Made by a program: the position numbers and the translations under genes. Below the pieces are notes generated by a model. That model worked only from the letters and a program-made list of their open reading frames with translations, was not told where the DNA came from and did no database searches. A DNA stretch of 64,000 nt from the NCBI GenBank assembly GCA_964645705.1, contig CAZYAB010000007.1, forward strand, positions 466-64,465, in the 5' to 3' direction. Shown here in pieces: positions 5,420-64,000 of this stretch; the stretch's first letter is position 1; every line of letters begins with the position of its first letter. This DNA comes from an uncultured Methanosarcinales archaeon (GTDB lineage Archaea; Nanobdellota; Nanobdellia; Woesearchaeales; CAXGTL01).

Positions 5420-8400
5420 CTCTTACTTTTACTGGCTTTCCTTTGTACATTGCAATCTTTGTCATTGTGATTACATTTTCTGATTCTTTTACATTTATCT
5501 TTGTGTCAACTATATTGCAAACATTTTCACATGTTTTACAATCTTCGTGCACTTCTTGATAATTTCTCATGTTTGGGTCTAATGTTGAACAATCATAGCA
5601 AGTGCATGCATAAGTTCCATCACCTTTGCAGAATCTCCATGGATAGTCAGGTCTTCTTTTACCAAAGCAGTCTTCACAATAACAAGTTTCACCTTTTTTA
5701 CATACACCATCTGGCAAACCAATGCATCCTCCTCCGTCTTCACAAATTTTGTCTTCTGAGCAATATTTTCCTGGTGCACAGCCTGCATCTTCCCAGCAAT
5801 TGTAACAATTTTCTGCGTCATCAATTACGCCGTCTCCGCATTTGTTGAGTTCAAAGTTTAATTCAATTGGTTTACAATAATCTGTTTCTATTGTTTCTGT
5901 TTGTTTAACTAGATTGCTCATCTTTGCTTCAATGTCATATGTTTCTCCGGGATCAAGTTCTAGTCTGTATCCAACTTCTGGGCTCGTATCTTTTGCTACT
6001 AATTCGTCTGATGATTTGTTGTATGCTCTTATCTTTGCATCTGAAAGTGGAATGTTTTCATTTGTTTTATCATATACGACTCCATATACTATTGCTTTTT
6101 CAGAACGACATATTGTGAAAAATCCTGAGTATGCTGTCTGTCCTCTGATTAACTTTTCTTCAAATTCAACTTTAGGAGTTATATTTATTTGGTATTCCAT
6201 GTTTTTATCTTTTAATTCTTCTATATTCCAGTCATAGTAATAATTTCCATCAAGATCTTTTCTATTTGGAATGTTTGCTGGTATTCCATTAGGTATAGAA
6301 TACCAATGTTCTGATGAATCATTTGAATATGCAATATTATATTTGATTAGATTATCAAATTCTTCTTGATCTTGTTTTTCCCAGTAAATTCTGAGTGTTT
6401 CTGGATCTTTTATTATTGTTTCGTGTTTTGGATATATTATTTTAATAGGTTTGATTGCACAATCTGGATCAAAGTCAGCGCACGCAAGGAAATTTTCTTC
6501 AGCAGGAGGACATATGTCGTCACTTTCTTGATCATTACATGTGCAAAGTCCTTCATCATTACATATTAAACCTGTTGCACATTTTATATTATCACATACT
6601 TGTTCTTCTTCATCACATGGCACGTCTTGACAAATAAGTTCGTCATTGATTATGCACGGATATTCATCTGCAGCACATCCACAGTCAGGATCAATGTATG
6701 AACAGTCTTGATTACATTCACCATCTGGTATATCTTCACCTTCACAATCACATTTGTTTCCTAGACCGTCTGCGTCTTTATCACCTTGGCCAGGATTGTA
6801 TATCTTAGGACAGTTATCACAAGTGTATTCATCACTATCAGGAACATCTTCGCTTTCATATAAGTCTGTGAATATTCCTTCTGGAACATTATCATTATCC
6901 ATGTCAAGGTATTTACAATCCCAGAGATCATTTTCTTCATCTTTACTGTCTTCACTATTACATACATAGAATATCTTTGGTTTTGATTTAATTGTAAACT
7001 CTGGTTTGTCTTTATCTTGTACTTCTACATTAACAAGATACATGCCATCTTCTGTTATTTCTGCTAATTCTGTATCAAATGAAAGTGAACATGTTAATTC
7101 ATTATTTGTTACAGTTCCTTGGTTGTCTATTGTTTTAACTGTGTCACCTTCTACTTTCTTTATCTTGAATTTACAATCTGGTTTGAATTCTCTGTTTGTG
7201 GCTGTGATGAATTTGAACTCACCTACATCTACATTTTTTGTATCTGAATCATAGAATGCTCTTTCTAGTTTATAATTTTCTGTTATTTCTTTTGGTTTGA
7301 CAATTATGTTAAAGCTTGGTCCACTAATATAGTTTGTCATGATATTAGAAGCACCGTCTTTTGCAAGAGCTGCTGTTGTGTATGCTTTGTCTTCTATATT
7401 GTTTGTGATTGTTGTTTTACAGTTTCTTATAAATCCTGTTTCATCTCCATCAAGTTTGAATCTACATTCACAGATTCCTGAATTGCCTGTTTGTGAATCA
7501 TCTGGTTTAGCAAATATGTCAAATGAATCACCGTGATAGAGTGTTACTTTATTATCTTTTAATCCTTCTACAATAATTTTGTTGCTATTGATTGTTGGTT
7601 CAAGTTTTTCAAATACTTCATGACTGAATGTAAATTGTTTTTCAGCAGGTATGTCTAATTGGCCGTCGAATATTGTTACTTTAAACTGTGCTTTATCATC
7701 TGAAGGTGATGTGTATGCATTGCATGTTAATTTGACATCTGAATTAGCTGATAATTCTTGTTTGTTCTTTATAGTCGCTGTTGTTGAACTTGTTGTTTCA
7801 AAAATAAATTCATCATCATTATCAATAGTGCATTTATTTTGGAGATTATATGGGAATTGTGATAAGTATACTTTTAGGTTTTGTTTGCCAAAGACTTTTA
7901 ATGCTTGTATTTCAAGTATATAAGGTTCATTAACATGCAAGTGTTGTTGATGTTTTACACTAATTTTTGAGAATGTTGCAGATTCTGGTTTAGGAACGTC
8001 TGTACATTGTGCAGTGTTTGTGCCAATATAACATCCACAATCATCATCAGCACAATCAATAATGCCGTCTCTGTTATTGTCAATTCCATCATCACAGATC
8101 TCTGTTTGACTACATGTTTCCCCGCGCGCATTTGTTTCGCCTTCACAACCTCTGTCAGCACAATCTACTTTATTATCATTATCATTGTCAAAGTCATCAT
8201 CGCAAACTTCTATTCCGCATCTTGCACCATAATATGCACCAATCTTTCCATTGCAATCATTTTGGTCAGCACAATTTTTTAAACCATCATTATCATTGTC
8301 ATCATTATCAACACATGCAAAAACATTTATGTCCTCAACAATTGATAATCCTGGGAATCCTGTTACACCACACAGATTGAATTTGTGGAAACAGTCTGTT

Positions 8401-28096: not shown

Positions 28097-28238
28097 AAAT
28101 ATAACACCCCTTTATATAATATATATATAAATTGAATTACCATTTATAAAGTTTACTCTTTTTTATATATATTATAATATATATTTGGTTAGTGTAGAAA
28201 CATTTTTATATAATATATATATGATGACTAATTATCAA

Positions 28239-28353
28239 GCCTCTGTAGCTTAGTGGCTATAGCGGCCGCCTAGTAACTTTGTTAGTAAGCGGCAGATCGA
28301 GGGTTCAACTTTTATTCTAGGAATCTAGGTGAATGAAATTCCCTCCAGAGGCT
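28239..28353 (+). tRNA. tRNA-Thr(AGT) with two BHB introns (37/38: 28276-28287; 59/60: 28310-28339)
   Basis: Acceptor GCCTCTG/CAGAGGC with U73; anticodon stem GCCGC/GCGGC; loop CT-AGT-AA after splicing; T stem GAGGG/CCCTC. BHB central helices CUAG/UUAG and UUCA/UGAA. Confidence 0.9.
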
Positions 28354-28369
28354 TATTTTATTTTTTATT

Positions 28370-29545: not shown

Positions 29546-29653
29546 GGGTCTGTGGTCTAGTGGCTATGCTTGTTTGCACCACAAATGACTTCTCGTTGAC
29601 TAGCCAATATCTCAGAACCGAGACGGTCGCCGGTTCAAGTCCGGCCAGACCCA
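29546..29653 (+). tRNA. tRNA-Val(GAC) with two BHB introns (D-loop: 29566-29584; 37/38: 29602-29617)
   Basis: Acceptor GGGTCTG/CAGACCC with A73; anticodon stem TCTCG/CGAGA; T arm GCCGG-TTCAAGT-CCGGC. BHB helices GUGG/CCAC and UUGA/UCAG. Confidence 0.88.
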
Positions 29654-63269: not shown

Positions 63270-64000
63270 TTAGATTCGAACTATTGGTAACTGCGGGCTG
63301 AATATCTCGCCGAAGCTTGATACTTACACCCCAGTCCCATCAACCTCCTGTTTTAAGAGTATTCTACGGTGTCTCTTTTCAAGAAGGGCTTCGTGCTTAG
63401 ATGCATTCAGCACTTATCCTTTAGCGCGTAGCTGCTTGGCATACCTTATCAGATAACCAATAGACCAGCGGCGCCGAGAGCCAGTTCCTCTCGTACTATG
63501 GCTCCCTTTCTTTCAGACACCAAACATCTCCAGTAGATAATAAACAAACTGTCTCACAACGTTCTGAACCCAGCTCACGTTCCCTTTTGATGGGTGAACA
63601 CCCCCACCCTTGGGCGCCTGTGCACGCCCAGGTTAGGAAGAGCCGACATCGGTGAAGCAAGCCGCGCCGTCGATTTACTCTTAACTCTAAGTCATAACTA
63701 ACGCAGGAAGTTTTAACAAACCAACTGATATAAAGTTATTTGTCGCTTAGAGCTAATAGGAGCTCTCGGGCGCGACAACTCTATTATCCCCGGAGTAACT
63801 TTTCAGTCATCTCAGACTCCCATTAAAGAAGTACTGAGGTTCGCTAGACCAAACTTTCGTTTTTGAAATTCGTATTATTGGGATTCCAATCAGGCTAACT
63901 TTTGCTCTTGCACTCTACATCGGATTTCTGACCCGATTGAGTTAACCTTTGGGCCCTGCTGATAAATTTTCAGCAGGATGCCACCCCAGCTAAACTGTCT
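63270..64000 (-). rRNA. rrl: 23S rRNA, 3' portion (domains V-VI), runs off window; 3' end approximate
   Basis: Reverse complement contains GAUGUCGGCUC, GUGAGCUGGGUUCAGAAC, sarcin-ricin loop AGUACGAGAGGAAC and GCAUCUAAGCACGAAGC. Confidence 0.97.
63675..63757 (-). other. 83-nt BHB intron in 23S rRNA helix 89
   Basis: Interrupts GAGCUCCU|AUCGAC; BHB GCUC/GAGU with CUA and AAA bulges; 11-bp stem UUAGCUCUAAG/CUUAGAGUUAA. Confidence 0.88.

Follow-up and report, generated by a model that had tools for sequence, protein, structure and literature searches.

In the eukaryotic case tRNA-Thr(AGU) is read as IGU after deamination of its wobble adenosine (A34) by ADAT2/ADAT3, and it belongs to a set of eight eukaryotic ANN tRNAs. 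Archaeal ThrRS uses U73 as an identity element, and archaeal tRNA genes with several introns, at positions 37/38 and 59/60, are known from Thermoproteales and DPANN. The threonine tRNA of Mycoplasma capricolum, which also has the anticodon AGU, carries an A34 that is left unmodified (Andachi 1987; Inagaki 1995; via PMC3711424 and PMC13433404), and according to PMC3711424 and PMC13433404 such an unmodified A34 reads both U and C. In the Leuconostocaceae (Leuconostoc, Oenococcus), Thr(AGT) and Leu(AAG) are found in place of GNN tRNAs, as set out in a review (PMC8007984). The same review has ANN anticodons all missing in Archaea, with no A34-specific deaminase known there.

The window analysed here is the whole stretch of 64,000 nt, on contig C7 of a 1.29 Mb assembly (G000; 30% G+C, 94.9% complete) from a small, uncultured marine archaeon, and it carries a tRNA-Thr gene with the anticodon AGU. 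Amino acid and anticodon are those of the M. capricolum tRNA, and the Mollicutes-type gene set accompanies them in a small AT-rich genome: an A34 gene, no tadA-type gene over cut-off, a companion Thr(UGU) and no Thr(GGU) found. Unlike its mycoplasmal counterpart, the present tRNA is archaeal, has introns, is accompanied by a retained Thr(CGU) and is known from the gene alone. With the Leuconostocaceae the archaeon shares a lineage-specific swap of an A34 for a G34 isoacceptor in a four-codon box, threonine included. Those bacteria, however, have TadA, which they need for Arg(ACG), whereas the archaeon keeps Arg(GCG), has no TadA-type protein over cut-off and is affected in the Thr box only. 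The encoded loop, C32 U33 A34 G35 U36 A37 A38, is of the same type as in eukaryotic tRNA-Thr(AGU), with apparent loss of the GGU gene as a further likeness, but no ADAT2/3 or TadA homolog exceeds the cut-off and only one of the eight ANN tRNAs is represented. As in the multi-intron archaeal genes, one BHB intron occupies the canonical position and another the T loop, and the gene is hidden from standard finders; those genes, in contrast, have ordinary G34, U34 or C34 anticodons. The features of the locus, all on the + strand, are as follows.

28239..28353 (+): tRNA-Thr(AGU) gene, 115 nt unspliced, 73 nt mature including discriminator T73, CCA not encoded (reading, BHB enumeration, ARAGORN on the spliced sequence, orthologs)
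28239..28275 (+): exon 1, tRNA positions 1-37, with the acceptor 5' strand, D arm, anticodon stem 5' strand and C32 U33 A34 G35 U36 A37 (sequence, BHB enumeration)
28272..28274 (+): anticodon AGT, with A34 at 28272 (sequence, BHB enumeration, contigs of 4 runs)
28276..28287 (+): intron 1 (ACTTTGTTAGTA), 12 nt, canonical position 37/38, strict hBHBh' (BHB enumeration)
28288..28309 (+): exon 2, positions 38-59, with A38, anticodon stem 3' strand, variable loop AGATC, T stem 5' strand and TTCAAC (BHB enumeration)
28310..28339 (+): intron 2, 30 nt, T loop position 59/60, strict hBHBh' (BHB enumeration), with a T>C variant at 28313
28340..28353 (+): exon 3, positions 60-73, with T60, T stem 3' strand CCCTC, acceptor 3' strand CAGAGGC and discriminator T at 28353 (sequence, BHB enumeration)
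28205..28213 (+): TTTATATAA, a putative TATA-box-like element some 30 nt before the tRNA begins, read from the sequence in a flank that is AT-rich throughout
28354..28366 (+): T-rich run TATTTTATTTTTT, directly 3' of the discriminator, read from the sequence and likely the archaeal termination signal

The linear order of the gene is GCCTCTG, TA, a D arm of GCTT/AGTGGCTA/TAGC, G, GCCGC, 19 nt, GCGGC, AGATC, GAGGG, 37 nt, CCCTC, CAGAGGC and T, the 19 nt between the anticodon-stem strands GCCGC and GCGGC being a 7-nt loop plus 12 nt. Introns were defined by two 3-nt bulges on opposite strands with a 4-bp helix between them and outer and inner helices on either side, and both introns have this form. 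Enumeration over the 115 nt gave a sole strict motif at intron 1, with a complete central helix (4/4: C32:G, U33:A, A34:U, G35:U), an outer helix of 5 bp that is the anticodon stem itself, an inner helix of 1 bp, and both bulges UA|A. The motif of intron 2 is stronger, with a 4/4 central helix, 5 outer and 6 inner base pairs. A preliminary description of this DNA had recognised a single 12-nt insert, which corresponds to intron 1 at 37/38, and had left the 30-nt T-loop intron unmentioned. It had also stated that any register for removing 12 nt yields AGT, which is borne out: the loop is CTAGTAA each time, and TTAGTAA for the extreme 5' register.

Removal of both introns leaves 73 nt with the anticodon loop CTAGTAA (RNA CUAGUAA) and the T loop TTCAACT, and ARAGORN, given this script-spliced sequence, calls a complete tRNA-Thr(agt) cloverleaf of 73 nt over the full span. 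At the unspliced locus nothing is called by ARAGORN or by Rfam at gathering score because of the second, T-loop intron; the Rfam tRNA model (RF00005) gives the unspliced gene only 17.9 bits, against a gathering score of 29 bits, because the introns are present. Threonine identity is indicated by G35 and U36 of the anticodon and by T73. The last had been proposed to fit Thr identity, and it does recur in Thr(TGT) and Thr(CGT) of this genome and in all 15 aligned orthologs. The locus is a genuine archaeal tRNA-Thr gene with an encoded A34 and two BHB-defined introns.

The A34:U pair in the BHB helix of intron 1 had been offered as an argument against a base error. The pair exists, but the argument is weak, since a G at position 34 could pair with that U as well. 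What does speak against an error is that relatives conserve the base and that independent contigs agree on it. In contigs from 4 DNA runs (2 studies), one run possibly being the source sample, position 28272 is A only, which answers the earlier call for read support favourably in that neither G nor T appears there. The T>C variant at 28313, within intron 2, is present in contigs of 2 of the 4 runs while the exons are identical, so that population variation at this tRNA gene is confined to the intron.

A DNA search of 60 relatives (61 genomes with the source genome), followed by inspection of the loci, recovered AGT orthologs in 3/3 same-genus genomes and in three further families. Correspondingly, the pattern GCKRTAGCGNNNNNCTAGTA matches 7/61 genomes in 4 families, namely the source genome, the three congeners and matches in 3 other families, and reversed-pattern controls gave 0 matches in the 61 genomes. 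Orthologs in G003 (same genus), G025 and G028 have no anticodon-loop intron and show CTAGTAA directly, and thus their AGT can be read without any splicing model; across the orthologs the loop is invariably CTAGTAA, or CTAGTA followed by an intron. Two of these intronless orthologs score well with the Rfam tRNA model, G025:C4:278397-278469 at 65.1 bits and G028:C1:511628-511700 at 56.2 bits. A species-genome collection scanned with the pattern GCTATAGCGNNNNNCTAGTA yielded 88 stretches, and among the 80 of them that were listed at least 21 hold the same tRNA: ARAGORN calls Thr(agt) in 17, and another 4 (L118, L142, L149, L170) were recognised as this tRNA by eye; in three of them the placing of the intron led to a call of Ser(aga), a miscall that still implies A34, and the fourth has a T-loop intron. 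The other 59 listed stretches are chance matches, coding-like, bacterial or archaeal. By record title the 21 comprise Woesearchaeota (7), Nanoarchaeota/Nanoarchaeia (3) and 'uncultured Methanosarcinales archaeon' (11), the last title being taken as a pipeline label and all 21 as DPANN-type MAGs. The collection overlaps the 61 genomes, so the counts from the two are not independent, and since the pattern fixes the D arm all pattern counts are lower bounds. In a gap-free alignment of 15 intronless copies CTAGTAA is invariant, 9/22 predicted pairs are changed on both sides and 0 are broken. The AGT tRNA is thereby shown to be conserved, with compensatory stem changes, in a DPANN group of Woesearchaeota- and Nanoarchaeota-titled genomes.

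The remainder of the threonine box consists, in the source genome, of two genes that share T73: Thr(TGT), at C2:167251-167368(-), and Thr(CGT), at C6:42655-42748(-). No Thr(GGT) was recovered from this 94.9% complete assembly by tRNA parsers, by a genome-wide anticodon-arm scan with or without a 37/38 intron, or by two BLAST routes with the genome's own Thr exons and a relative's GGT tRNA as queries. The two non-coding GGT matches of the arm scan lie in rRNA and in a C-rich repeat, and a 14-nt BLAST match to the GGT anticodon arm, C1:165437-165450, is AT-rich, coding-like DNA and no tRNA. Because the tRNA inventory is incomplete and the assembly 94.9% complete, a heavily split Thr(GGT) could have been missed. 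The preliminary description had asked whether Thr(GGT) is absent; besides the source genome, it was not found in the complete relative G028 (a single contig of 773,982 bp, 99% complete), which has the same AGT tRNA. There ARAGORN reports 41 tRNAs, with TGT, CGT and intronless AGT for threonine, and ARAGORN, arm scan and BLAST all lack a Thr(GGT). The absence of GGU is firm for complete G028 only.

G025 is the one genome in which both states were seen, its AGT and GGT genes lying 135 nt apart with dissimilar sequences. Used as a query, its GGT gene matches 9/61 genomes at E<=1e-7, eight with GGT in the alignment and the ninth (G017) with GGG. The GGT-type tRNA, anticodon verified, is thus present in 8/61 genomes, and only G025 among these also has AGT, the other 7 being AGT-less; conversely, the query finds no match in the source genus, G028 or G035, that is, in 6/7 AGT genomes. 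In the remaining genomes neither the AGT nor the GGT query matched, which says little. Parts of the order thus have GGT as their normal condition. The D arms of some GGT genes resemble that of the AGT tRNA. A complete relative, G019, considered as an AGT-less control, gave only 14 Rfam tRNA matches and was therefore useless.

The tRNA set of the source genome includes G34 tRNAs for Arg, Ile, Val, Gly, Asn, Asp, His, Cys and Phe. ARAGORN finds 1 tRNA gene without and 5 with its intron option, and Rfam gives 11-16 matches, weak or strong, whereas purpose-built finders (BHB-splice plus ARAGORN pipelines and a T-arm-anchored parser) parsed 27 class-I genes automatically. The inventory stands at about 35 genes, including about 8 recognised by eye or unassigned; Ala, Tyr and several to most Leu and Ser are not among the genes assigned. 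Nearly all of the genes have 1-4 introns, mostly at 59/60 and 37/38 and often with a third in the D region, a His tRNA gene with three introns being one that these finders recovered. The only intronless gene according to ARAGORN is Cys(GCA) at C4:45366-45437; a second Cys(GCA) lies at C5:40317-40402. With almost all tRNA genes of the genome invisible to standard finders, anticodon censuses of such MAGs are unreliable.

Whether other ANN tRNAs exist had also been raised, and no credible one was found: in the arm scan no ANN arm but that of the present gene combined a 4/4 BHB helix with a tRNA context. ARAGORN's 'Ser(aga)' on C2 is Thr(TGT) on inspection; of the G028 calls, 'Ala(agc)' proved to be a CAT tRNA and 'Ser(aga)' resembles Lys(CTT). 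The 'Leu(aag)' call at C11:5580-5753 (-) has no strict BHB for AAG and no Rfam match; the element there is a class-II tRNA gene, 174 nt long and with G as its discriminator, for which Leu(CAA), Leu(TAA) and Ser(TGA) are anticodon alternatives. The window holds a second split tRNA gene 1.2 kb downstream of the first, at 29546-29653 (+) (C7:30011-30118), which parses as Val(GAC) with two BHB introns and is miscalled Glu(ctc) by ARAGORN with the intron option. Three His(GTG)-type genes are present, two in tandem at C11:8039-8107 and 8113-8245 (+) and one at C1:21337-21508 (-), and one of the tandem pair is intronless with an odd T loop, GTGAAAG. tRNA-Ile(UAU) is known from Nanoarchaeum and Korarchaeum, and a tRNA-Ile(TAT/UAU) gene with a strict BHB intron is found here at G000:C9:10277-10400 (-), as well as at G028:760423-760521 and in G025 (locus L206); the review (PMC8007984) lists Ile(UAU) as lost in Archaea.

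Deaminases were sought in five A34-bearing genomes. The TadA model NF008113 exceeds its cut-off (150 bits) in 0/5, its best scores in the source genome being 15.8 bits in the genome scan and 23.7 bits against proteins; ADAR/ADAT1-type (PF02137) and ADA-type (PF00962) domains are likewise found in 0/5. The earlier call for a deaminase search thus ends with no TadA/ADAT-type protein over cut-off in the five genomes. CDA-fold proteins are present in 5/5. The source genome has two, C5:71697-72113 and C6:63566-64036, which score 23.7 and 16.7 bits with the TadA model (cut-off 150); among NCBIfam models both match the dCMP deaminase ComEB best, with 66.6 and 43.4 bits where the cut-off is 219, and neither paralog reaches any curated family cut-off. 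By their sequences the two look dCMP-deaminase-like. G028 has a single CDA protein, with dCMP-deaminase motifs. Only G003 among the five has a TadA-like protein, a 159-aa product of G003:C27:11903-12202 (-) (locus L191) that resembles TadA and nucleoside deaminases, carries HAE...PCPMC and reaches 69.8 bits with the TadA model, below cut-off. It has no ortholog in the source genome or in complete G028 (tblastn best E 0.029 and 0.059). Co-distribution of the second CDA paralog (C6) with the AGT tRNA was considered and rejected, as G028 and G035 contain nothing that matches it at E<=1e-6, and the matches in G002 and G003 are no more than distant.

In the preferred mechanism tRNA-Thr(AGU) would occupy the slot of the usual Thr(GGU) and decode ACU and ACC, leaving ACA and ACG to Thr(UGU) and Thr(CGU). 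A34 would be left unmodified, as in the M. capricolum tRNA. Its pairing with U would have Watson-Crick geometry and should be favoured in a 30% G+C genome where ACU is about 10 times as frequent as ACC, and C would be read through an A:C wobble. Codon usage was tried as a discriminator between inosine (I34) and A34 and proved non-discriminating, with G028 and the source genome pointing in different ways. The source genome has ACU at 0.33 and ACC at 0.031 of its Thr codons, the comparable NNC fractions being 0.026 for Ala and 0.030 for Pro. In G028 ACC makes up 0.204 of Thr codons, vs 0.14-0.43 in boxes with a G34 tRNA and 0.065-0.11 in boxes for which neither a G34 nor an A34 tRNA was found (Ala, Pro, Ser4); G025 has ACC at 0.107. 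An efficient C-reader, for instance I34, would account for the G028 level no less well than unmodified A34 does, and since unmodified A34 is itself reported to read C, the codon argument does not discriminate.

The preliminary description had posed unmodified A34 and an unrecognised deaminase as alternatives, and these are indeed the two live readings. By analogy with Mycoplasma, and in view of the lack of any TadA/ADAT-type deaminase over cut-off in the five A34 genomes, unmodified A34 is favoured, by a judgement that puts it a little above even. The other of the two, conversion of A34 to I34 by an enzyme not recognisable as TadA/ADAT, is possible though on balance unlikely; in that case ACU, ACC and ACA would all be decoded by this tRNA, as happens in eukaryotes, and the candidate enzymes are a dCMP-deaminase-like CDA-fold protein or the archaeal tRNA adenosine deaminase that has yet to be described. 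The ACC level of G028, reached with no G34 Thr tRNA found, speaks for inosine, as do the CDA-fold proteins, of which every one of the five A34 genomes has at least one open to repurposing and the source genome two that fall below every curated cut-off, and the TadA-like protein of G003. But that protein is confined to G003 in the comparison with the source genome and G028, the second CDA paralog does not travel with the AGT tRNA, the single CDA protein of G028 has the motifs of a dCMP deaminase, no genome of the five has a TadA-type protein over cut-off, C can reportedly be read by unmodified A34 as well (PMC3711424 and PMC13433404), and the codon pattern of G028 is not repeated in the source genome, where ACC is close to its Ala and Pro counterparts. 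The bolder form of the inosine reading, that a DPANN clade makes wobble inosine on tRNA-Thr with an enzyme that either has no relation to TadA/ADAT or has diverged far from it, a repurposed dCMP-deaminase-like protein being one example, is slightly less likely still; if true, I34 decoding would have been invented independently a third time, and for the first time in Archaea.

A different modification of A34, or a narrower or regulatory role beside an undetected Thr(GGU), such as boosting the decoding of ACU only, is improbable. G025, with both genes, demonstrates that the AGT tRNA can coexist with GGT, and the incomplete tRNA inventory of the source genome leaves room for such a partner, but complete G028 has no GGT and six of the seven AGT genomes give no GGT-type match. 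Least probable by far is that the gene is a decaying or unexpressed copy, or that it is a Thr(GGU) gene into which assembly or sequencing introduced a false A at 28272. The failure of standard finders to call the gene is what could be held in favour of decay or error, but the base is uniform in the contigs of 4 runs even though the intron variant at 28313 is visible in them, AGT is invariant across orthologs, nine of the 22 pairs have compensatory changes with none broken, both BHB motifs are intact, and the GGT-type tRNA of relatives is a different sequence. The preferred reading as a whole, in which the intron-split gene would be functional, its mature anticodon AGU, its product a replacement in the GGU slot and its A34 unmodified in decoding, is put at slightly better than an even chance for all of these parts jointly.

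tRNA-Thr(AGU) is a conserved, lineage-wide exception to the absence of ANN anticodons from Archaea, standing where Thr(GGU) normally does, and this probable replacement of G34 by A34 is the first documentable case for threonine in Archaea. In the full-text literature searched, subscription journals and supplements apart, there was no published report of an archaeal A34 tRNA. If A34 is unmodified, the rare Mycoplasma-type A34 decoding extends to the third domain; if it is inosine, an archaeal tRNA deaminase of a so far unknown kind exists.

Several other elements were recorded in the window and genome. An archaeal LSU rRNA lies at the end of the window. Aligned with the archaeal model, it has an insertion of 85 nt at 63664-63750 (-), close to model position 2570, possibly an rRNA intron or else an expansion. 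A C-rich repeat, roughly 40-50 nt long (CCCACC..CC...CCCCGACCACCCGCCCC), occupies about 20 non-coding sites just 3' of genes on either strand, for example G000:C3:79025-79078, C6:15868-15920 and C5:74470-74515. Another repeat, of about 65 nt (..CCTTATCAGGATCGACCGGGATRGTGCG...GCTCGCTTAGYCCCACA), is found within the D-region introns of both Gly tRNA genes, next to Lys(TTT) and once alone (G000:C1:161155-161345, C9:11526-11743, C9:30667-30809 and C3:113267-113349), and could be a mobile or structured RNA element.
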